Counted from the stretch's first letter, positions 7,540 to 64,000 are shown. The stretch: DNA of 64,000 nt from Actinobacillus sp. (GCA_020026115.1 JAHHQY010000003.1:4919-68918); one strand, 5' to 3'. A program made the numbers and translations. The notes: a model not told the origin generated them from the sequence alone.

Positions 7540-7616
7540 GGAGTGGTAGTTCAGCTGGTTAGAATACCTGCCTGTCACGCAGGGGGTCGCGGGTTCGAGT
7601 CCCGTCCATTCCGCCA
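7540..7616 (+). tRNA. tRNA-Asp (anticodon GTC), copy 1
   Basis: 77 nt, GGAGTGGTAGTTCAGCTGGTTAGAATACCTGCCTGTCACGCAGGGGGTCGCGGGTTCGAGTCCCGTCCATTCCGCCA. It folds as a cloverleaf, is near-identical to E. coli tRNA-Asp, and encodes its CCA end. Confidence 0.95.
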
Positions 7617-7628
7617 ACCTTTCTTCAC

Positions 7629-7705
7629 GGAGCGGTAGTTCAGCTGGTTAGAATACCTGCCTGTCACGCAGGGGGTCGCGGGTTCGAATCCCGTCCGTTC
7701 CGCCA
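7629..7705 (+). tRNA. tRNA-Asp (anticodon GTC), copy 2
   Basis: 77-nt tandem copy 12 nt after copy 1. It differs at acceptor pair 5:68 (C-G versus T-A) and at one T-loop purine. Confidence 0.95.
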
Positions 7706-23453: not shown

Positions 23454-26099
23454 ATGTCTGATTTTTCTACAAATATTACGCCAGTAAGCATTGAGGAAGA
23501 ACTTAAGTCTTCTTATCTTGATTACGCGATGTCCGTTATTGTCGGGCGTGCGTTGCCTGATGTGCGCGATGGGTTAAAACCTGTACACCGTCGTGTGCTT
23601 TTCTCTATGAGCCAAAGCGGTATTGCTTTTAATAAACCTTATGTGAAATCGGCTCGTGTGGTCGGTGACGTGATTGGTAAATATCACCCTCATGGCGATG
23701 CTGCCGTTTACGACACAATTGTGCGTATGGCACAACCTTTCTCTTTACGTTATATGTTGGTTGACGGGCAAGGTAACTTTGGTTCCATTGATGGCGACTC
23801 ACCTGCGGCGATGCGTTATACCGAAGTGCGTATGCAAAAAATCACACAAGAATTACTAACGGATTTAGATAAAGAAACCGTTGATTTTTCGCCAAACTAT
23901 GACGGTAAAGAAATGATTCCTGATGTGTTACCAACACGTATTCCTGCTTTATTAGTGAATGGTTCATCAGGGATTGCCGTGGGTATGGCAACGAATATTC
24001 CCCCGCATAATTTAGGTGAAGTATTAGATGGATGTTTAGCTTATGTAGATAACGAAAATATTACCATTGATGAATTAATGCAATATATTCCAGGCCCTGA
24101 CTTCCCAACTTCCGCCTTAATCAATGGTCGCAAAGGTATTGAAGAAGCCTACAAAACAGGTAAAGGTAAAATTTATGTACGCGCTAAAGCGGAAATTGAA
24201 ACCAATGCCAAAGGTCGCGAAACCATCGTTATTACAGAAATTCCTTATCAAGTGAATAAAGCACGTTTATTAGAAAAAATTGCAGAATTAGTGCGTGAGA
24301 AAAAAATTGAAGGAATTAGTAGCTGTTTAGACGTATCCAGTGACAGTATTCGTATTGAAATTGAAGTGAAACGTGATGCCGTCGGCGAGGTGGTATTAAA
24401 TAATCTTTATGCTTTAACGCAAATGCAGGTCACTTTTGGTATCAATATGGTCGCTTTAGATCATGGTCAACCAAAATTATTGAATTTAAAAGAAATTATT
24501 TCAGCTTTCGTGACTCATCGTCGAGAAGTTATTACGCGTCGTAGTGTGTATGAATTACGCAAAGCACGCGAAAGAGCGCATATTTTAGAAGGTTTGGCGA
24601 TTGCTTTAGCGAATATTGACCCTGTGATTCATTTAATCCGCGCGTCCAAAACCGCAGACGAAGCTCGTGAAGCTTTATTGTCACGCCCTTGGGATTTAGG
24701 CAATGTGAGCGCGATGTTAGCAGAAGCGGGTGTCGACGCTTCTCGTCCAGATGGTTTAGGCAAAGAATTTGGTATTCATGATGGCAAATATTATTTATCC
24801 GATGAACAAGCTCGCGCCATTTTAGATTTACGCTTACAGCGTTTAACGGGCTTAGAATATGATAAAATTGTTAGCGAATACAAAGAGTTGCTAGTTGAAA
24901 TTGCAGAGTTGTTGCATATTTTAACAAGCTCTGTGCGCTTAAAAGAAGTGTTACGCGAAGAATTAGAAGTCGTAAAAGAAAACTTCAATGACGCCCGCCG
25001 TACAGAAATTACCAGTGCATCTGGGGATATCAATTTAGAAGATTTAATTGCACCAGAAGATGTTGTCGTGACGCTTTCTCATGAAGGCTATGTGAAATAT
25101 CAACCTTTAGCGGATTACGAAGCGCAACGCCGAGGCGGTAAAGGTAAATCCGCTACTAAAATGAAAGATGAAGATTTCATTGAACGTTTATTAGTCGCGA
25201 ATACTCATGACAGTATTTTATGTTTCTCAAGTCGTGGTCGTACTTACGCTCTTAAAGTGTATCAATTACCGCAAGCAAGCCGTGGCGCTCGTGGTCGGCC
25301 AATTGTGAATATTTTACCGCTGGAAGAAAATGAACGCATTACCGCTATTTTACCAGTTTCTAATTTTGACGGTGAACAATACATCTTTATGGCAACAGCC
25401 GGTGGCGTTGTGAAAAAAGTTGCCTTAAGTGCCTTTAGTAAAATTCGTGCTAATGGCTTAATCGCCTTAAATTTACGCGATGAAGATGAGTTAGTTGGCG
25501 TGGACATTACCAATGGCGATAACGAGATTATGCTCTTTACAGCCCAAGGTCGTTGTGCAAGATTCCATGAAAGTCAAATTCGCGCTATGGGACGTACTGC
25601 AACAGGTGTTCGCGGGGTGAAATTAGCCTTAGCTGAAGAAATCGATGAAACAGACATTGAAGATTTGAGCGAAGATGAACAAGAAAGCTTAGATCTCAAT
25701 ATTGATAAAGTTGTTTCATTGGTGGTACCAAAAGGTAATGGGGCAATTCTCACCGTGACAGAAAATGGTTATGGTAAACGTACAGAATTAGCCGAATATC
25801 CTGCGAAATCACGAAATACGAAAGGCGTAATTGCAATTAAAACCAGCGAACGTAATGGTAAAGTTGTTGCCGCAACGCAAGTAGATGAATGTGATCAAAT
25901 TATGCTTATTACCAATGCAGGAACATTAGTTCGTACTCGCGTAAGTGAAGTCAGCATCATTGGCCGAAACGCTCAAGGCGTACGTTTAATTCGCACAGTA
26001 TCTGACGAATTAGTCGTTAGCGTGGAACGTATTTGTGATAGCGATGATGATGAAGCAGAAGCGGAAGACGCAACAGCTTTAGAAAATTGCGCTGAATAA
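23454..26099 (+). CDS. gyrA: DNA gyrase subunit A
   Basis: 881 aa with an N-terminus colinear with E. coli GyrA (..[25 protein letters not shown]..). The QRDR reads [20 protein letters not shown]. It also has GyrA-box/beta-pinwheel repeats and an acidic tail. Confidence 0.97.
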
Positions 26100-26108
26100 A
26101 TTAACTTT

Positions 26109-26140
26109 TACCGCACTATTTTTTAGTGTGGTATTTTTTT
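26109..26140 (+). terminator. gyrA terminator built from a degenerate Hin-type USS inverted pair
   Basis: TACCGCACTA-ttttt-TAGTGTGGTA followed by T7. The arms match ACCGCACTT/AAGTGCGGT at 8/9 and 7/9. Confidence 0.75.
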
Positions 26141-26149
26141 GGATTAAAA

Positions 26150-26503
26150 ATGGAAAAAAATTTACTTTCTTTACATTTATTATGTGCTTTTATCAGTTTA
26201 TTGCTGTTAATTATTCGTGGCAGAATGCAATATAAAGGCAAAAATTGGCGTAAAAATTTATTATTGCGCAAAATGCCTTTGTTTTCAGATTGCGGATTAC
26301 TTGTCACAGGCGTGGCTTTAATTTTCCTCACAAAGGTTGGTTTTAGTTGGTGGATTTTAGTCAAACTAGGCTTAGTTGTAGAATATATTTTATTTTCAAG
26401 AAAATATTTCGAGCAAAATACCTCTGACGCCAAAAGCAATAATCGCTATCTTTTAGCCTTATTGTGTTTATCCAGTGCGGTATTATTAAGCTATTACCAT
26501 TAA
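26150..26503 (+). CDS. SirB2-like small membrane protein
   Basis: About 117 aa with four hydrophobic segments and a SirB-family-like N-terminus (LLSLHLLCAFISLLLLIIRG). The choice of start between 26126 and 26150 is uncertain. Confidence 0.5.
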   Translation: MEKNLLSLHLLCAFISLLLLIIRGRMQYKGKNWRKNLLLRKMPLFSDCGLLVTGVALIFLTKVGFSWWILVKLGLVVEYILFSRKYFEQNTSDAKSNNRYLLALLCLSSAVLLSYYH

Positions 26504-26544: not shown

Positions 26545-26560
26545 CTCGCGCCGAAAAAAA
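26545..26560 (+). repeat. motif, single copy
   Basis: CTCGCGCCGAAAAAAA, between the terminator of the sirB-like gene and the comE stop. Confidence 0.85.
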
Positions 26561-26565
26561 GGCGC

Positions 26566-27729
26566 TTATTTTTTCTGAGAAGGGGTTAAATGACGATGGA
26601 ATAAATCTTGCGCGCGCTGATTTTCAGGCCGGCCTAACAGATTATTTTCCTGCGGATAAATAATGCGAGGGGTAACAAAAATAATCAGCTCACGCTTTTG
26701 ATGACGTTCACCTTCTTTACGGAACAAATATTTAATGAGTGGCACATCGCCTAAAAAAGGGACTTTTTGCACATAGTTGGTCACAGTGTCATGAAAAATC
26801 CCACCTAAAACAATGGTTTCACCGTTATGAGCTAAAACTTGCGTATCAATTTCTTGTTTTTCGATGGCAACAAATTCATTTTTACCAATTTTTGCTTGTT
26901 CTCCTGGCGTATTTTGCGTAATTTTTAAATCCATTAAAATTTTATTATTTTTAGCAATTTGTGGCGTCACTTCTAAACTTAAAACCGCATCTTTAAATTG
27001 CACTTCTTGCGTGTCATTTTTACCCGTCACGACATAAGGCAATTCCGTCCCTTGTTCAATTTTTGCTTGGCGTTTGTTGGTCGTCATCAGTTTTGGGCTG
27101 GCAATAATTTCAACGGAATTTTCTTTTTCTAGGGCAGAAAGTTCTAAATCTAATAAACGCCCATTAATTGTCGCAAGCTGTAAAGTCATCGCGCCCGCAG
27201 GGTTTGCGGTACCTAAATTGACGTTTAAATTATTGGCAAGCATATTAGGAAAATTACTTTCTAACATGCCATTAAAGCCGTGACTTGGGCTTAAGGAATT
27301 CGGTTTCATTGCGGGCGATTTATCAAATAAGCCCCAACGAACCCCCATTTCTTGCAAGCTTAAATCATTCATGGTCACAATGCGTGCTTCAATAACAATT
27401 TGCGGTAGGGCTTTATCTAAATTTTGCACGAGTTTTTGTACTTTTTTAAAATCTTCAAGATGACCTTGCAACATCAGTTGATTACTACGCTCGTCCGCAG
27501 AAAGCATATTAGCGGGTAATAAATCTTTTAATTTTTCAACTAAATCAGTGGCTTTAGCATGATGTACTTGCAAGCTGTAAAGATTTTTTAATGGGCTGTT
27601 TTCGTTTCCATTTTCTTCCGTAATAACTTGATCGAGCATATTTTTTGCTTGTGAAAAAAAAGGGTTGCTGTCACGAGCAAAGGTCGCAGTAGTTAAAAAA
27701 AATACACAAAATAAACAAAAATAACGCAT
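26566..27729 (-). CDS. comE: competence/type IV pilus secretin ComE (PilQ family), short form
   Basis: Signal peptide MRYFCLFCVFFLTTATFA. There is a single NolW/N1-like module (..ADERSNQLMLQGHLEDFKKVQKLVQNLDKALPQIVIEARIV), then the secretin core (..LGDVPLIKYLFR..RELIIFVTPRII). It is the last gene of the com operon. Confidence 0.88.
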   Translation of the reverse strand: MRYFCLFCVFFLTTATFARDSNPFFSQAKNMLDQVITEENGNENSPLKNLYSLQVHHAKATDLVEKLKDLLPANMLSADERSNQLMLQGHLEDFKKVQKLVQNLDKALPQIVIEARIVTMNDLSLQEMGVRWGLFDKSPAMKPNSLSPSHGFNGMLESNFPNMLANNLNVNLGTANPAGAMTLQLATINGRLLDLELSALEKENSVEIIASPKLMTTNKRQAKIEQGTELPYVVTGKNDTQEVQFKDAVLSLEVTPQIAKNNKILMDLKITQNTPGEQAKIGKNEFVAIEKQEIDTQVLAHNGETIVLGGIFHDTVTNYVQKVPFLGDVPLIKYLFRKEGERHQKRELIIFVTPRIIYPQENNLLGRPENQRAQDLFHRHLTPSQKK

Positions 27730-27733
27730 AAAG

Positions 27734-28288
27734 TTAGGACTCCTTTGCGGGGGCTAATTGAGAAAGATCCAGTTGCCAAACACTTTCAGCCCATAAAAAT
27801 TGCTGATTTTCCTTGTTTTCGCTGTCTTTTTCTAACTGCAAAGAAACTAAGGATAAAGGCGGATATTGGCGTAAAAGTTGATGAAAAAATTGATATAAAG
27901 CGTTAAAACTGCCCTGCATATTAAGATGCAACACCGGTTTTTCTCCCATGCGCCATTGCAAAGGGTGAAGATGTAATTGCGAGGATTGTTGTTGCAAAAT
28001 ATATTGATCAATCGGCATAAGTTGACGCGCTAAAGCGGGGGTTAATTCTTGCGCAAGTTGCTTTTGTTTTAGCTCTTGCAAGCCTTGCTTGACCTGTTTG
28101 AGCGCAAGTTCCGTTTGCTGTTGTTGTTCTTTAAGGGCCAAGCGCTTTTCCTTTAATTCCTGGCCTTGCCAAAGGGGATAGACAAGTAAAAGGAAGGCAA
28201 AAAGCACAAAAAGCGCCAGTTTTTGCCAACAAGGATATTGTGCAAAGGGCAGTAATACGGGCGTGATTTTAATAAGCCATTTGTTCAT
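27734..28288 (-). CDS. comC: competence protein ComC (PilO-like)
   Basis: 184 aa with an N-terminal TM helix, a Q/K-rich coiled coil and a C-terminal PilO-like fold (..LNMQGSFNALYQFFHQLL..). It overlaps the comB stop by 4 nt. Confidence 0.75.
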   Translation of the reverse strand: MNKWLIKITPVLLPFAQYPCWQKLALFVLFAFLLLVYPLWQGQELKEKRLALKEQQQQTELALKQVKQGLQELKQKQLAQELTPALARQLMPIDQYILQQQSSQLHLHPLQWRMGEKPVLHLNMQGSFNALYQFFHQLLRQYPPLSLVSLQLEKDSENKENQQFLWAESVWQLDLSQLAPAKES

Positions 28289-28806
28289 GGCGTGTCCTTT
28301 TGTAACGTAAGTAAAAATTCAAAAAAAATCCGCGATTTTTCAGTTTGAAAAGCCGTTAATTTTAATGCGTCAATATTTCGGGCTTGGCGTAAAAACTTTT
28401 CGAGAGCGTTAAATTCTTCAGTTTGTATTGCAAAGCCCGTTAAGCGTAAACTGTGGTGATTTAGTACACATTGTTCTAATTCCCCTTGGCTTAAAGGTAA
28501 TGTTGGAAGCAGAGTTAAAAGCGCTAAACTTTTTTCATTATCCAAGGCTTGTAGAGGCGTATTTTCAAGAAGATTTTCTCGCCCTTGCTTAAGGTTATGT
28601 TTCAGTTCATGTAAGAACCGTTGCTTCTCTTCTAAGCGTTGTGTTTGTTGGGTAACCTCTTGATTTATTTCGTTATTATCCCAAAGCAAAGAAAAAACAG
28701 CCAAGCAAACACAAAAGAGAAAAAACGTGCTTTGATATAAAAAAGAACGAACCAAGCTAAGACGCAGATGTTCTCGCCAAGGAAATAAATTCATAGATTT
28801 CCACAT
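28285..28806 (-). CDS. comB: competence protein ComB (PilN-like)
   Basis: It has the NLFPWREHLR motif typical of PilN, followed by a TM helix. The start could be 28806 or 28794. Confidence 0.78.
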   Translation of the reverse strand: MWKSMNLFPWREHLRLSLVRSFLYQSTFFLFCVCLAVFSLLWDNNEINQEVTQQTQRLEEKQRFLHELKHNLKQGRENLLENTPLQALDNEKSLALLTLLPTLPLSQGELEQCVLNHHSLRLTGFAIQTEEFNALEKFLRQARNIDALKLTAFQTEKSRIFFEFLLTLQKDTP

Positions 28807-28809
28807 AAG

Positions 28810-29637
28810 CTACTCAAAATTTTCTATTGGTGTTTCCCATAAAGCGCAGCCTAAAGCCATAAGGGAAAAGGGTTGTGAAACATCTTGCCAATGAACGGGC
28901 ATTTGCGCTAAAGCTGGGCTGTCTTTTTCACCGAAAAATAAAACTTTTTCTGCTTTGATGTCATATTTTTCGCAAAACTCTTGATAAAGACTTAAAGCGT
29001 CGCCTTGATTTTTTTGTAAAATTAAGCATTTCATGGGTTGTTCAAGAAAAGCCAGTGCGAAATCTTGAGTTTGGTATAAACAAAGCACGTTATATAAATG
29101 TGGCGAACGTTCTTCTTTCGGTAAAAGATAGGCAAAAGCATAATGCAAAACATTGCTGGCACAATCTAATACATCGAGTTTAAAGGGCTGAAAACTTGCG
29201 CGATATTCACGGGCAAGAGATTTCACGATAGCAAAAAGATCAATGCGAATGCCTTTATTATGAGGTAAATCGGCCATAATAAAATCAAACCACACATCAT
29301 CTAAGGGAACGGGTAAATCATTTTTTAACGCCAACATACATTGCATTTCCGCCTCTCTTGCTTGAGTTGTGGGCGGAAAAATTAAAGTTCGATGTAATAA
29401 CTTATGCGGTAAAATTGCGGTAATAAATTTAAGTTTAGGCGTTTTTTTTATTTTTAAACTAGAACAAATAGCACGTTGTAATTCCGCCAAACTAGGGTTG
29501 AAACTGCTATAAAAATGGCATTGTTCGCTTGGGTCTAGCCAGGCAAAATGCCAGTGCATTTTTTCACTCGCACCGAAAATTTGTGGCATTTTCCAAACAC
29601 CAATTTGTAAGGTCGGCTTTTTATGTATACTTAACAT
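28810..29637 (-). CDS. comA: competence protein ComA (PilM-like)
   Basis: 275 aa, first gene of the operon and divergent from mrcA, exactly as comA and ponA are in H. influenzae. Confidence 0.75.
   Translation of the reverse strand: MLSIHKKPTLQIGVWKMPQIFGASEKMHWHFAWLDPSEQCHFYSSFNPSLAELQRAICSSLKIKKTPKLKFITAILPHKLLHRTLIFPPTTQAREAEMQCMLALKNDLPVPLDDVWFDFIMADLPHNKGIRIDLFAIVKSLAREYRASFQPFKLDVLDCASNVLHYAFAYLLPKEERSPHLYNVLCLYQTQDFALAFLEQPMKCLILQKNQGDALSLYQEFCEKYDIKAEKVLFFGEKDSPALAQMPVHWQDVSQPFSLMALGCALWETPIENFE
29567..29579 (+). repeat. motif copy inside a CDS (comA, antisense to the gene)
   Basis: CTCGCACCGAAAA. On the coding strand it reads TTC GGT GCG AGT = F-G-A-S (..PQIFGASEK..). Confidence 0.85.
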
Positions 29638-29786
29638 CCTTTAAACTCCCTATCTTGATATGAAAAAAAAGCTAATTTGGTTAAAAAGTCATTTCCCCCT
29701 TTAGATTTAGGCTGTGAAACTTTATACTTAGGCGCTGATTTTGAAGAATTTGATATTTACTGCACGACACAAGAGAGAAATTTACG

Positions 29787-32432
29787 ATGCGGATCGCAAA
29801 ACTGATTTTAAGTAGCGTATTAACGCTCATATTCCTAGGTAGCATAGCGGGAGCCATTCTTTTTTATGAAATAAAAAAAGATTTGCCCGATGTTGAAAGT
29901 TTAAAAACGGTGGAATTAAAGCAACCTATGCAAATTTTTACCGCCGATCATCAATTAATTGGTGAAATTGGCGAACAACGCCGTATTCCCGTGCCTTTGG
30001 AAGATATTCCTAAAGGTTTAATTGACGCGCTTATTGCAACGGAAGATAGCCGTTTTTATGAGCATTTTGGTTTAGACCCCGTGGGGATTATGCGCGCTCT
30101 TAGCGTGGCTATTGCTCAAGGTGGGGCAAGACAAGGGGCGAGTACCATTACTCAGCAAGTGGCGCGAAATTTCTTTTTAACGCGAGAAAAAACCTTAATT
30201 CGTAAAGTGAAAGAAGCTATTTTAGCGATAGAAATTGAGCAACATTTAACAAAAGATGAAATTTTAAATTTATATTTAAATAAAATTTATTTAGGAAATC
30301 GTGCATACGGGGTAGCCGCAGCCGCTCAAACTTATTTTGGTAAGAAATTAAATCAACTGACTTTATCTGAAATGGCGGTGATAGCCGGTTTACCTAAAGC
30401 ACCTTCCACTTTAAACCCAGTTTATTCGGTAAAACGTGCAGAAGAACGCCGTAATGTGGTGTTGGGTCGAATGCTAGAAATGAATTTTATTGATAAAGCC
30501 CAGTACGAACAGGCGAAAGCTGAGCCGATTATGTCTCATTATCATGGCGTGAAACTGGCTTTCCACGCTGATTATGTCAGCGAAATGGTACGCCAAGAAA
30601 TGGTGAAACAATTCGGTGAAGAAGAGGCCTATACAAAAGGTTATAAAGTTTATACGACCATTTTATCGAAGGATCAAAAAGCGGCACAAAACGCCGTTCG
30701 CGAAAATTTAATTGCTTATGATATGCGCCATGGTTATCGCAAACCGGCTTATTTATGGAAAGAAAATGAAACGCCATGGAGCGAAAATAAAATTCAAAAT
30801 TATTTAAAAGGTCTATACAATGCCACCCCATTTGTTCCTGCGGGCGTTTTAGCAAAACAGGCGGATGAGAGCTTGTTATTGTTATTAGCCAATGGCGAAA
30901 AAGTGACGCTAAATAAATCCGCTCAAGCTTGGGCGAAAAAGCATAAGCCTCAAGTGGGCGATTTAATTTGGATTCGTCAAGTAAAAGGCAATTGGCAATT
31001 AGGACAAATACCTGAGGCGAATTCTGCGTTAGTGTCATTAAATAGTGATGATGGGGCTATTGAAGCTTTAGTTGGTGGTTTTAGTTTTTCACAAAGTAAA
31101 TTTAACCGCGCAACCCAAGCTTTAGTGCAAGTCGGCTCGGTGATTAAGCCCTTTATTTATGCGGCAGCCTTTGATCGTGGTTTAACCTTGGCGACGTTAT
31201 TGCAAGACAGCCCATTGATTTTAAAACAAGAAGGGCAAGCAGACTGGCGTCCGCTTAACTCGCCAAATCGCTTTGATGGCCCAATGCGTATTCGTAAAGG
31301 ATTAGGGCTGTCTAAAAATATGATTGCAATTCGTACGATAAAAATGGCGGGCATTCCTTTTACAGGGGAATTTTTGCAACGCTTTGGTTTTAAACCTAAT
31401 CAATATTTTGCCAGTGCGTCTTTAGCTTTAGGTACGGCTTCTTTTACGCCTTTAGAGTTGGCGCGCGCTTATGCCGTCTTGGATAATGGAGGTTTTTTAA
31501 TTGATCCTTATTTAATTGCCAAAATTGAAGATAATAACGGCAATGAAATTTTTAGCGCTCAACCAAAATTAGCTTGTCCAACGTGCGATAACATTCCCGT
31601 TATTTATGATGAAACGCAAAAAATTGATGCATTACAAGAAGATACTGCAAATAGCGAGATTATCGATGACGAAGGCGTGCAAGCTGGAAATGCCATTCAA
31701 GACTTAAATGATGGGCAAGATATTAAAGATATTACGCCTGTTGATGACGAAATGGTCGAGCAAGGTGCTTTACGAACCTTGCAGTTACAAGGCTTGAAAG
31801 CGTTAGATCCTTATTCCGCGAATTTTATGCAAGAAGCACAAGCAAAAAATAAAGCAGAGCTTCAAAAAGCGCAAGAAGAAGCAAGTCAATATGCCCCACG
31901 CGTTTTAGATGGCGGGGTTGCTTTCCTATTGCGTAGTGCATTAAATACAGCAATATATGGGGAAACGGGGCAAAATTGGTTAGGAACAAGCTGGCGTATT
32001 CGTCAAAGCATTAAACGCAGTGATTTAGCGGGTAAAACGGGAACAACCAACCAAAACAAAGTTGCTTGGTATGCAGGATTTGGTGCTAATATTACCACTG
32101 CAATTTATATTGGTTTTGATAATAATGCTCGCAATTTAGGACGTGGCGAATACGGCGCAAGTGCAGCGATGCCAGCTTGGGTTGAGTATATGAAAACGGC
32201 CTTAAAAGATGTGCCAGAACGTCAACTACCTTTGCCAAGTAATATTATTACACGTCAAATCGATCCTGAGTCAGGGCTTCTTGCCTCACCAGGAGAAAAA
32301 GGGTTACGCGAATACTTTATTAAAGGAACAGAACCTAAACGTATTTTTGTACCGCAAAATCGAGGTTATTTACCTTCAATGAGTACAGAGCCTGATACAA
32401 GCAATTCTTTGCAACAAGAAGAATTATTTTAA
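29787..32432 (+). CDS. mrcA: penicillin-binding protein 1A (bifunctional glycosyltransferase/transpeptidase)
   Basis: 881 aa with GT51 motifs (EDSRFYEH, GASTITQQ), transpeptidase motifs SVIKP and KTGTT, and an acidic insertion near residues 600-650. Confidence 0.93.
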   Translation: MRIAKLILSSVLTLIFLGSIAGAILFYEIKKDLPDVESLKTVELKQPMQIFTADHQLIGEIGEQRRIPVPLEDIPKGLIDALIATEDSRFYEHFGLDPVGIMRALSVAIAQGGARQGASTITQQVARNFFLTREKTLIRKVKEAILAIEIEQHLTKDEILNLYLNKIYLGNRAYGVAAAAQTYFGKKLNQLTLSEMAVIAGLPKAPSTLNPVYSVKRAEERRNVVLGRMLEMNFIDKAQYEQAKAEPIMSHYHGVKLAFHADYVSEMVRQEMVKQFGEEEAYTKGYKVYTTILSKDQKAAQNAVRENLIAYDMRHGYRKPAYLWKENETPWSENKIQNYLKGLYNATPFVPAGVLAKQADESLLLLLANGEKVTLNKSAQAWAKKHKPQVGDLIWIRQVKGNWQLGQIPEANSALVSLNSDDGAIEALVGGFSFSQSKFNRATQALVQVGSVIKPFIYAAAFDRGLTLATLLQDSPLILKQEGQADWRPLNSPNRFDGPMRIRKGLGLSKNMIAIRTIKMAGIPFTGEFLQRFGFKPNQYFASASLALGTASFTPLELARAYAVLDNGGFLIDPYLIAKIEDNNGNEIFSAQPKLACPTCDNIPVIYDETQKIDALQEDTANSEIIDDEGVQAGNAIQDLNDGQDIKDITPVDDEMVEQGALRTLQLQGLKALDPYSANFMQEAQAKNKAELQKAQEEASQYAPRVLDGGVAFLLRSALNTAIYGETGQNWLGTSWRIRQSIKRSDLAGKTGTTNQNKVAWYAGFGANITTAIYIGFDNNARNLGRGEYGASAAMPAWVEYMKTALKDVPERQLPLPSNIITRQIDPESGLLASPGEKGLREYFIKGTEPKRIFVPQNRGYLPSMSTEPDTSNSLQQEELF

Positions 32433-61958: not shown

Positions 61959-62864
61959 ATGAAAGAATTAAAAAAAATTATCAGTGAAAAATTAAAGATA
62001 GATTTATCAAAAGTCGAAAGTGTTAATTTTTTAGGTGGAATGACAAATCAAAACTATTTAGCCAAGGTTATTGATACAACTTCTCAAGTACAGGAATATG
62101 TATTAAGAGTACCTGGTGCTATGACACAATCTTTAATTTCGAGAAAAAATGAAGCATCAAATAGCAAAATTACATCAGATTATAAATTTAACGTTGAAAC
62201 CTGTTATTTTGACGCTAAAACAGGTATTAAAATTACTAAATATTTAAAAGATAGTAAAACATTAGATCATGAAAGCATTAAAAATACTGAAGTGATTATT
62301 GATGTGGCTAATAATTTGAAAAAATTACATTCTTCAGATATTAAATTTGAAAATGAATTTAATGTTTTTACAAAATATGATGATTATTTGTCATTATTAA
62401 AAGAGAAAGATAAATTTTTTAAATATCATACCCAAATGGATGAAATTTTATTGTTTTGGGAAAAAGTAAGAGAATACTTTGAATATAATAAGCCAAAACT
62501 ATCACCTTGTCATAATGATTTAGTACCTGAAAATATCTTATTTAAAGAAAGATATTATTTCATTGATTGGGAATATTCAGGAATGAATGATTTATATTTT
62601 GATCTTGCTGCATTTTTGCTTGAATCTAGAATTGAGATCAAATATGAAACTTTATTTTTAAAAAGTTATTTTGATAAAGAGAATATTAGCGAAGAGAAAA
62701 ATATTGTTCGTTTATATCAATTTACACAAGATTTATTATGGACTCTGTGGACAGTTATTAAAGAAGAAAATAATGAGTTTTTTGAAGGGTACGGAGAAAA
62801 ACGAATAACAAGCGCCATTAGAATTATGAATGAATTAAAAGTAAATGGTTTTTTTAATGAATAA
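61959..62864 (+). CDS. licA: choline kinase LicA-like (phosphotransferase family)
   Basis: 301 aa with GGMTNQNYL, the catalytic HNDLVPENILF and IDWEYSGMND. It is the first gene of an AT-rich licA-licB-licC cluster. Confidence 0.8.
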   Translation: MKELKKIISEKLKIDLSKVESVNFLGGMTNQNYLAKVIDTTSQVQEYVLRVPGAMTQSLISRKNEASNSKITSDYKFNVETCYFDAKTGIKITKYLKDSKTLDHESIKNTEVIIDVANNLKKLHSSDIKFENEFNVFTKYDDYLSLLKEKDKFFKYHTQMDEILLFWEKVREYFEYNKPKLSPCHNDLVPENILFKERYYFIDWEYSGMNDLYFDLAAFLLESRIEIKYETLFLKSYFDKENISEEKNIVRLYQFTQDLLWTLWTVIKEENNEFFEGYGEKRITSAIRIMNELKVNGFFNE

Positions 62865-63780
62865 TTATAAAGGCATTATAGCAGGCTTAGTGTCAGGTTT
62901 ACTTTGGGGAATTACAGGGATTTTATATGCAAAATTAAATATAAATTACCCTGTTACAACGGTAATTTCTGTTATTTTAAGTTTGTTATTTTTAGTTGAA
63001 CTCATAAGTGGTGCTTTAGTTGGCTCATCTATAGTTGTTTTATATAAAAGAAACATATTAAAAGAGTTAAACCGAAAAACAATATTATTAGCGATGTTAC
63101 TTGGCGTCATTGGCGGGCCGGTCGGAATGCTTTGTTATTTACAAGCAATATCATTAATTGGGGTAGGTTATGCTGCACCAATTTCGTCTATATATCCAGT
63201 ATTTGGTGCTTTATTATCATTATTTTTCTTAAAAGAAAAAATGACAAAATATGCGATTTTAGGCGGTCTTTTAACACTAGGTTCAACTTTTTTATTATCA
63301 CTCGATATACATGATGGGACATTTTCGCTTATAGGTTTAAGTTTAGCATTGATTTGTGCTTTAAGTTGGGGCAGTGAAATAGTTCTATCTTCTTATGTTA
63401 TGAAAATTATGGGTAACTTAACAGCTTCAAAATATGCCTATTTTTTAAGACAGGTAGGGGCGGCGAGTGGCTATTTTATTTTATTAGTATTTTTAAAAGT
63501 AAATATTTTTGAACTATCAAACAATTTTAAAGATATAACATTTGATTTATTTTTATTATTTATTGTTTTGTCTTCAATGTTTTCTTATATGCTCTATTAT
63601 TTTGCTATTGATAAACTAAAGCCAATAAAAGCAATGATGTTAAATATTACTTATGGCGTTTGGATTGTTATATTTGGTATTTTATTGGGAGATAATTCAT
63701 TTGAAGTATCTAAATTTTTATTGGTTTGTGGAATATTAATTGGTTCCATTATTGTATTAAAGTCTAAAAAGGAAATATAA
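62857..63780 (+). CDS. licB: choline permease LicB-like (EamA/DMT family)
   Basis: About 307-aa, 10-TM DMT-type protein. The ATG at 62857 overlaps the licA stop by 8 nt. Confidence 0.7.
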   Translation: MNNYKGIIAGLVSGLLWGITGILYAKLNINYPVTTVISVILSLLFLVELISGALVGSSIVVLYKRNILKELNRKTILLAMLLGVIGGPVGMLCYLQAISLIGVGYAAPISSIYPVFGALLSLFFLKEKMTKYAILGGLLTLGSTFLLSLDIHDGTFSLIGLSLALICALSWGSEIVLSSYVMKIMGNLTASKYAYFLRQVGAASGYFILLVFLKVNIFELSNNFKDITFDLFLLFIVLSSMFSYMLYYFAIDKLKPIKAMMLNITYGVWIVIFGILLGDNSFEVSKFLLVCGILIGSIIVLKSKKEI

Positions 63781-63781
63781 C

Positions 63782-64000
63782 GTGAAAGCAATTATTTTAG
63801 CAGCAGGATTAGGTAGTCGTTTTAAAGAAATAACAAAAACAACGCATAAAGCATTATTACCAATTCAAGGTGAACCTAATTTAGAACGAACAATTAAATT
63901 TTTAAAAGAAGCAAATGTTCAAGATATTTATATTGTAACAGGTCATCTTAAGCAAAGTTTTGAATATCTCATAGATAAATATCAGGTAAATTTAATCTTT
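63782..64000 (+). CDS. licC: CTP:phosphocholine cytidylyltransferase LicC-like, N-terminal part (runs off the window)
   Basis: Manual translation from GTG 63782 gives VKAIILAAGLGSRFKEITKTTHKALLPIQGEPNLERTIKFLKEANVQDIYIVTGHLKQSFEYL..., which has the nucleotidyltransferase G-loop and is close to pneumococcal LicC as I recall it. Confidence 0.75.
   Translation, partial: MKAIILAAGLGSRFKEITKTTHKALLPIQGEPNLERTIKFLKEANVQDIYIVTGHLKQSFEYLIDKYQVNLIF

Follow-up and report, generated by a model that had tools for sequence, protein, structure and literature searches.

A four-gene competence operon in Actinobacillus sp. with a short ComE secretin that probably carries the N-terminal peptide of ComD

The competence operon analysed here lies in a 64,000-nucleotide (nt) stretch of DNA from Actinobacillus sp. 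(GCA_020026115.1 JAHHQY010000003.1:4919-68918, hereafter the window), with its genes on the minus strand and divergent from mrcA (29787-32432). Reading the open reading frames (ORFs) from the sequence gave four genes: comA (PilM-like, 275 amino acids (aa), 28810..29637), comB (PilN-like, 173 aa, 28285..28806), comC (PilO-like, 184 aa, 27734..28288) and comE (26566..27729), which encodes a short secretin of 387 aa composed of a ComD-type N-terminus, a linker, an N1 domain and a secretin domain, with no N0. The reference for comparison was a Haemophilus locus (L006) that carries comA, comB, comC, comD (127 aa, PF04351 PilP), comE (460 aa) and comF. Using blastp, ComA (2e-36, residues 19-272), ComB (2e-22, full length) and ComC (9e-16, aligned to residue 174 of 184 against 177 of 181) were identified as colinear full-length orthologues of the Haemophilus proteins, and the window thus has the three co-oriented genes of a PilM/N/O platform upstream of the secretin. 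Orthology was shown by blastp to the Haemophilus locus, while Pfam and NCBIfam gave weak or irrelevant matches to these three proteins: PilM_2 and TIGR01175 matched ComA weakly, PF05137 PilN matched the comB orthologue of a relative (L002) weakly, and PF27480 ComC_C was present in the ComC orthologues of relatives. A fusion of ComD to ComC was considered and rejected, as ComC carries no added domain and is colinear with and of the same length as Haemophilus ComC.

The four genes are tightly coupled, with a 3-nt gap between comA and comB, a 4-nt overlap between comB and comC and a 4-nt gap from the comC stop to the ATG of comE, with an AAGGAG ribosome-binding site ahead of this ATG. There is therefore no space for a further gene between comC and comE. 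The same four-gene operon beside mrcA was found in eight independent assemblies from NCBI, ENA and Logan: the window, two of the A. delphinicola group (L001, which is A. delphinicola itself, and L090), L002, L004, L087, L088 and L089. A mis-called start or a collapsed assembly hiding comD would have to survive both the 4-nt spacing behind a ribosome-binding site and the repetition of the structure in all eight assemblies, and we regard such an artefact as having a negligible probability. A sequence-only reading of the window had described four tightly coupled genes of these lengths at these places with no room for comD, and the ORFs and junctions match that description.

To look for ComD/PilP and N0, profiles were constructed by iterative search of the six-frame ORFs of 86 fetched loci, including 81 control loci from Pasteurellaceae, Plesiomonas, Aeromonas, Pseudoalteromonas, Psychromonas and others. 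The search for comD covered the 64 kb of the window and 7-13 kb around the locus in each relative. Of the 81 controls, 79 gave a ComD-profile match (E 2e-46 to 2e-11), to a PilP encoded just before the secretin, and the other two have cut-off flanks; the N0 profile matched all 81 secretins. No comD was found in the window by tblastn, and the best ComD-profile match in its six-frame translation had an E of 1.9; N0 was likewise not found in this translation (best E 0.58). The window has neither a separate pilP-type gene directly upstream of the secretin nor a PilP/ComD (PF04351) C-terminal β-sandwich (HR-like) domain. Neither ComD nor N0 was detected by profile in the window together with loci L001-L005 (best E 0.47 and 0.58), and the short-secretin loci L087-L094 gave no significant ComD-profile match and no N0. 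Within the sample, comD/pilP and N0 co-distribute perfectly: both are present in 79/79 readable controls and neither is present in the short-secretin loci. comF, which follows comE in Haemophilus, does not follow it here and was not found in the 64 kb by tblastn.

A free-standing PilP encoded elsewhere in the genome could contact the secretin through N1 or another partner, and the stretch searched leaves room for such a gene. The known docking site for PilP, N0, is gone however, and with comD/pilP directly upstream of the secretin in every readable control such a move would be unusual. We consider a relocated comD improbable.

The domain content of ComE was assessed by profile, alignment and structure prediction. 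Pfam identified Secretin_N (PF03958) at residues 53-110 (E 3.4e-10) and Secretin (PF00263) at 199-357 (E 2.2e-49). The PilQ model TIGR02515 matched at 325.6 bits, above its cut-off of 284.35, but only from profile position 87. HofQ NF010083 (E 3e-90, 302.9 against a cut-off of 554) and NF007851 (235 against 598) matched only from positions 113 and 107, and ComE thus has the secretin and N1/N3 domains of the PilQ/HofQ/ComE secretins, lacks their N0 and falls below the HofQ equivalog score. Alignment to Haemophilus ComE starts only at Haemophilus residue 133, and a block of about 70 N-terminal residues of the Haemophilus protein is missing in the window ComE and its eight closest relatives. Similarly, alignment by sequence to V. 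cholerae PilQ (6w6m) starts at residue 257, its last N domain (N3). The AlphaFold2 model has residues 16-46 disordered (predicted local distance difference test, pLDDT, below 50), then N1 at about 50-120 (pLDDT about 80), then the barrel, with no N0 fold. The single N1 module and missing N0 proposed by the sequence-only reading were therefore borne out by Pfam, the N0 profile, alignment and AlphaFold2, the last of these supplying the structure prediction of the ComE N-terminus that it had called for.

Along the protein, a signal peptide read from the sequence occupies residues 1-19 (MRYFCLFCVFFLTTATFA|R, 27673..27729, minus strand), with a helix modelled at 3-16 and an hhalign match to ComD signal peptides. 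An NPF motif, of the (D/N)PF form that marks the N-terminal segment of ComD/PilP, follows at residues 22-24 (27658..27666, minus strand). The disordered linker from NPF to N1 covers residues 25-49 (27583..27657, minus strand) and varies in sequence across the clade. After it comes the single ring-building domain of N1/N3 type, residues ~50-120 (27370..27582, minus strand), modelled as a beta-alpha-beta-beta-alpha fold, and the secretin domain, residues ~184-357 (26659..27180, minus strand), has its AlphaFold2 strands at 184-357. ComE is a member of the PilQ/ComE secretin family; having no β-domain, it does not belong to the PilP family, though it bears the PilP N-terminal motif.

The N-terminus of the short ComE proteins resembles that of ComD. 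In 78/78 PilP/ComD proteins examined an xPF motif stands before the β-domain. PilP outside Pasteurellaceae has a lipobox, about 45 residues and then R(S/N/D)PF, and Pasteurellaceae ComD has a signal peptide followed directly by DPF with no lipobox, in variants that include QDPFD in the Haemophilus/Pasteurella group and ADPFY, NPFY and EPFY in the Actinobacillus/Glaesserella group. In the window this PilP/ComD motif is present, located in ComE rather than in a separate protein. All 9 short ComE proteins of the clade have (D/N)PF 3-6 residues after the predicted signal-peptide cleavage site despite variable flanks, the window with RDSNPFFSQ and its relatives with DPFY, DPFF, DPFQ or DPFN. In long ComE the signal peptide runs directly into N0.

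Profile comparisons support the resemblance. Using hhalign, the short-ComE N-termini aligned to ComD with 91% probability (P 1.1e-6) and DPF on DPF, and controls consisting of signal peptides only gave P 2.4e-4 and 1e-3. With signal peptides removed the score was 19.3 against a column-shuffle null of 7.0±1.5 that reached it in 0/200 shuffles, although this mature-only test was anchored on the motif and is partly circular, so that the unanchored tests weigh more. A hidden Markov model (HMM) of the ComD N-terminus, made from long-form species only, ranked short ComE proteins as the top 6 of 450 ORFs from the eight short loci (E 3e-5 to 0.19), and among 3421 control ORFs its best non-ComD match had an E of 0.007 and the next 0.34. 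The A. delphinicola ComE N-terminus alone retrieved A. indolicus ComD (E 0.0097), with ComD making up 7/10 of its top matches.

We then asked where else such secretins occur. A HMMER scan covered 1.84 billion representative proteins, and further short secretins were taken among the 150 best matches. After the signal peptide, these have LDPFF in Gallibacterium anatis PilQ (P0131), GDPFY in P0133, ADPFY in P0209 (GCA_002754915.1), NNPF in P0130 and P0132, RDPFF in P0150, RDPF in P0234 and P0141 and SNPF in Vibrio sp. RC27 (P0148). Four of the loci were readable, a G. anatis-type locus (L091), Vibrio RC27 (L092), a JGI metagenome contig (L093) and GCA_002754915 (L094), and all four have pilM, pilN, pilO and the secretin; profile searches of the loci found neither PilP nor N0. 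A pilP remnant in the 272-nt pilO-secretin spacer of L093 (1388-1659) was considered and rejected, since the spacer is a long imperfect inverted repeat, similar to repetitive extragenic palindromic (REP) elements, with no PilP-like frame. Overall, [DN]PF precedes N1 in 9/10 independent short groups against 0/29 long secretins (Fisher P 4.7e-8), in which the region before N1 is three times longer, and in 0/81 control-locus secretins. The N-termini of P0133, P0209 and P0150 had ComD as 7, 9 and 10 of their top 10 matches among the 3421 ORFs, of which ~2% are ComD.

Two further short secretins differ at the N-terminus. The PilQ of Vibrio breoganii, V. superstes and V. comitans (P0137 cluster, 378 aa) lacks N0, AMIN and a clear [DN]PF, and its N-terminus reads SLASEPQWFSS. 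P0275, a 375-aa PilQ-type secretin from a metagenome-assembled genome (MAG) of Gammaproteobacteria, has at its start, in place of a signal peptide and DPF, a transmembrane helix and a segment resembling a coiled coil (KLSQLKNQNNELKSKIEVMDSSLKLLK), and may be a different kind of platform-secretin fusion.

The short secretins do not group together. Over N1 and the secretin region, each short group scores higher with a long-form secretin than with any other short group, for example 0.59 vs 0.48 for the window, 0.63 vs 0.51 for P0133 and 0.67 vs 0.60 for V. breoganii. In a neighbour-joining (NJ) tree of PBP1A, Gallibacterium groups with the long-form Spirabiliibacterium and Testudinibacter and never with the window clade (0/100), and GCA_002754915, which carries Apl-type uptake sequences, joins an Actinobacillus-type clade (63/100). 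From the long-form nearest relatives and the PBP1A placements, the architecture would therefore have three or more origins in Pasteurellaceae, with independent recurrence outside the family in Vibrio sp. RC27 and an uncultured gammaproteobacterium. A single horizontally spread family of short secretins was rejected, as each is closer to its local long-form secretin and the host PBP1A trees disagree. Recurrence also speaks against a relocated comD, as independent lineages have undergone the same loss and, with it, gained a ComD-type N-terminus.

The closest homologues of the window ComE, among them that of Actinobacillus delphinicola, are 53-65% identical and 367-393 aa long. In the PBP1A tree, a single-protein NJ tree of the first 600 residues, the seven clade members with mrcA in the fetched locus are monophyletic (97 and 98/100 bootstraps), and the short-ComE clade branches apart from the other sampled Pasteurellaceae. 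On this protein comparison the short-ComE assemblies appear as one deep Pasteurellaceae clade, in agreement with a 2026 taxonomic study that places A. delphinicola as the most isolated species of Pasteurellaceae (PMC13076348). The short ComE is the derived state, because the outgroups and all other sampled Pasteurellaceae have comD/pilP and N0.

All four com genes are intact in the 8 assemblies, which differ by 35-50% at the protein level. Comparing L001 with L090, the ratio of nonsynonymous to synonymous substitution rates (dN/dS) was 0.14 for comA, 0.23 for comB, 0.21 for comC and 0.085 for comE, with dS near saturation. As a separate observation on this pair, the com genes had a dS of 1.6-1.8, whereas in the flanking genes mrcA and gyrA it was 0.82 and 0.47, respectively, a two- to fourfold difference that might reflect codon bias or recombination.

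Upstream of comA is a CRP-S-type site, TGCGATCCGCATCGTA (29783..29798, minus strand), which is of the TGCGA-N6-TCGCA-like form, is identical to the site in the Haemophilus reference locus and would place the operon in the Sxy/CRP-S regulon. Relatives carry TGTGATCCGCATCGTA or near variants upstream of comA. Overlap of the site with the start codon of mrcA may contribute to this conservation. A putative -10 hexamer, TATAAA (29721..29726, minus strand), is suggested by its place within TAAGTATAAAG, a conserved string that the window, L001, L002, L004, L006, L087 and L090 all have upstream of comA. With purifying dN/dS and a conserved CRP-S-type site, the operon therefore looks to be maintained under purifying selection, with four genes that are functional and regulated as competence genes.

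The window also contains a motif resembling an uptake sequence, cTCGCGCCGAAAAA, one copy of which lies just 3' of the comE stop (26547..26555, plus strand). Its core CGCGCCGAA occurs 24 times in the 64 kb against 0.84 expected (29-fold) and in both orientations, in line with the strong uptake-sequence-like signature to which the sequence-only reading had pointed. Sites include 3258, 3287, 10082, 23274, 23305, 26547, 54323 and 54353. About 10 copies are located within ORFs, and several are arranged as closely spaced inverted pairs shortly past the ends of genes. The Hin (3 copies) and Apl (1 copy) uptake signal sequences (USS) were not enriched in the 64 kb; by comparison, 13 kb of the Haemophilus control locus (L006) contains 13 Hin-USS, and 11 kb of that of A. 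indolicus (L053) contains 5 Apl-USS. As a 2025 paper states that only the Hin and Apl USS types are known in Pasteurellaceae (PMC12616744), cTCGCGCCGAAAAA is a possible new type of uptake signal sequence. Hin-USS, Apl-USS and the window motif were all lacking in the L001, L090 and L002 loci, where GC-rich words of their own are over-represented: ACGCCCCGA(TTT) 5 and 4 times in 13 kb, and AAAATGGCGC 5-6 times in 12.9 kb. The 13 kb of the G. anatis-type locus contained no Hin or Apl USS. The word counts suggest lineage-specific uptake-sequence dialects in the short-ComE clade.

Loss of an essential component could instead have left the operon a relic heading to pseudogenisation. In keeping with this, competence is described in PMC1626085 as often lost in Pasteurellaceae lineages, and the short-ComE clade shows no enrichment of the canonical Hin and Apl sequences. 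A decaying system is hard to reconcile, however, with four genes intact in 8 assemblies at dN/dS of 0.09-0.23, with a conserved CRP-S-type promoter and with the strongly enriched uptake-like motif of the window itself. In addition, G. anatis, which is naturally transformable (Kristensen et al. 2012, as cited in PMC10269479), has the same four-gene layout, and therefore a machine of this kind can work. We regard decay as very unlikely. A competent relative with a short ComE alongside comD would have spoken against the sequence-only reading; G. anatis does have a short ComE, but without comD, which instead argues that the four-gene system works.

The reading that we consider probable is that the operon is a working four-gene version of comABCDE, in which one in-frame deletion fused the N-terminal peptide of ComD to the secretin, with loss of the ComD β-domain and the ComE N0. 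The genes pilP and pilQ lie side by side in the same orientation, and each encodes flexible linkers. In the ancestor of the clade, an in-frame deletion would have begun in the flexible linker of comD (pilP) and ended in the linker that follows N0 in comE (pilQ/hofQ), its junction now lying within ComE linker residues 25-49, and would have removed the ComD β-sandwich and the ComE N0, the two globular domains that bind each other. The comD start, signal peptide and (D/N)PF peptide would have been retained and joined through about 25 disordered residues to N1, and the signal peptide of ComE is accordingly proposed to derive from comD. The N-terminal segment of PilP is reported to bind PilN/PilO, and its C-terminal β-domain binds PilQ N0 through an interface that resembles GspC-HR:GspD-N0 (PMC5805733, PMC11525922). 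Under the proposed fusion each secretin subunit would carry the ComD N-terminal peptide covalently, leaving the 1:1 stoichiometry unchanged, a peptide bond would replace the contact between the PilP β-domain and N0, and the (D/N)PF peptide would dock on ComB/ComC (PilN/PilO) and so keep the link between platform and secretin.

The alternative closest to the sequence-only reading is loss of both partners with no fusion: comD deleted, N0 lost, the secretin uncoupled from the platform or bridged to it by an unrelated protein, and the (D/N)PF a coincidence. No ComD β-domain or N0 was found in the window or in any short-secretin locus, the window N-terminus alone is only weakly ComD-like and the short secretin of V. 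breoganii has no clear motif, all of which fit this alternative. Set against it are the fixed position of the motif, which each of the 9 clade members has 3-6 residues past the predicted cleavage site, the comparisons by hhalign and with the ComD N-terminal HMM that single out short ComE, and the presence of [DN]PF in 9/10 short groups against 0/29 and 0/81 long secretins, so that the coincidence must be repeated in each lineage. Without fusion, nothing would account for the repeated appearance of the PilP motif on the secretin. We judge loss without fusion to be unlikely. The joint loss of PilP and N0 that the sequence-only reading put forward thus stands as far as the perfect co-distribution goes, but ComD seems to have been truncated and fused rather than simply lost. 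An uncoupled platform, or one served by another protein, found no support, as short ComE keeps a ComD-type signal peptide and DPF.

Several points weigh against the fusion. The shared element is short, a signal peptide and a motif of 3-4 residues, so that the case is carried by profiles and by recurrence across groups; taken singly, the N-terminus of the window ComE, with NPF and not DPF, matches ComD only weakly, at E 1.5 with 3/10 of the top matches, and V. breoganii shows that a short secretin can be without a clear [DN]PF. In P. aeruginosa an AlphaFold-Multimer model of PilP puts PilN/PilO binding in a short α-helix near the lipidated N-terminus (PMC11525922), and Pasteurellaceae ComD has neither the lipobox nor that helix. 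A single deletion is inferred by parsimony, as the junction is not locatable in the variable linker. At about 25 residues the tether falls far short of the former series of linker, β-domain, N0 and linker, and the geometry of the machine may have changed. The trees used are single-protein NJ trees, and a further pilP may lie beyond the 64-kb window and the 7-13 kb around the relatives' loci.

A wider proposal, for and against which we find the case evenly balanced, is that secretins headed by a PilP peptide are an unrecognised and recurrently evolved class in which a covalent link replaces the β-domain:N0 contact. The β-domain:N0 interface would then be only a connector and (R/x)(D/N)PF the minimal coupling element; the class would have at least three origins in Pasteurellaceae and would have arisen again in Vibrionaceae and other Gammaproteobacteria, and it would support transformation in G. 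anatis. More speculatively, loss of N0 might go with non-canonical uptake-sequence repertoires in the window clade and Gallibacterium. Full-text literature searches found no description of an N0-less secretin, a PilP-PilQ fusion or an absence of pilP of this kind. A 2023 survey of Avibacterium scored ComA-D as "absent" by homology, which shows how such variants get overlooked.

The contact between PilP and PilQ-N0, with its twin GspC-HR:GspD-N0, has been treated as the defining link between platform and secretin. What looks like a natural deletion experiment, repeated across lineages and compatible with transformation, suggests that both globular partners are dispensable if the PilP peptide stays on the secretin. 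Attention shifts to the universally conserved xPF motif, and the short-secretin operons offer a minimal system for platform-secretin coupling for which G. anatis genetics is available. Gene-content surveys would be corrected as well, in that a score of "comD absent" for these genomes does not amount to a missing competence component, and the competence machinery and uptake repertoire of Pasteurellaceae would show more variety than the two dialects of the present literature.

Downstream of comE are a gene for a SirB2-like membrane protein (26126-26503, plus strand) and gyrA (23454-26099, plus strand), an arrangement common to L001, L004, L089 and L090. Elsewhere in the window, a region of low GC (26.5% in 62001-64000) contains at 61959-63780 a gene for a choline/thiamine-kinase-family protein (301 aa) followed by one for an EamA-type transporter (311 aa), a pair that resembles licA-licB in the phosphorylcholine (lic1) locus. 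At 7540-7705, two tRNA-Asp(GTC) genes lie in tandem, 12 nt apart.

Compared with known systems, the operon is closest in layout to comABCDE(F) of H. influenzae and H. parainfluenzae, which has the same site divergent from mrcA/ponA, the same gene order and orthologous ComA, ComB and ComC, and whose ComE is 55% identical to the window ComE from N1 to the C-terminus. Unlike these, the window has no separate comD, and in its ComE some 70 residues of N0 are missing, the protein opening instead with a ComD-type signal peptide and (D/N)PF. HofQ of Aggregatibacter actinomycetemcomitans and E. coli shares the N1 and secretin core and is the closest NCBIfam relative after PilQ; it has a periplasmic N0 and N1, whereas the window ComE has no N0 and falls below the NF010083 cut-off. 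The N0-N1 region of HofQ is reported to bind DNA. The PilQ/HofQ of Gallibacterium anatis (378-380 aa), annotated publicly as PilQ with its architecture not noted, has the same four-gene layout, with a signal peptide and DPFF and no comD or N0, but would be of independent origin, as this secretin is nearer to long-form secretins (0.55) than to the window clade (0.50 or less). Cyanobacterial pilMNOQ likewise has no obvious separate pilP gene (PMC7690835), but divergent PilP homologues were later proposed there, whereas the window secretin carries the PilP motif itself and is without N0. Finally, the PilMNOP-PilQ system of the type IVa pilus in P. aeruginosa and M. xanthus follows the same logic, with an inner-membrane PilM/N/O platform linked to an outer-membrane secretin and xPF in the N-terminal segment of PilP. 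The window system differs in having neither partner of the PilP-C:N0 contact and in lacking AMIN domains, the lipobox and the PilP helix, and a peptide bond is proposed to take the place of that contact.

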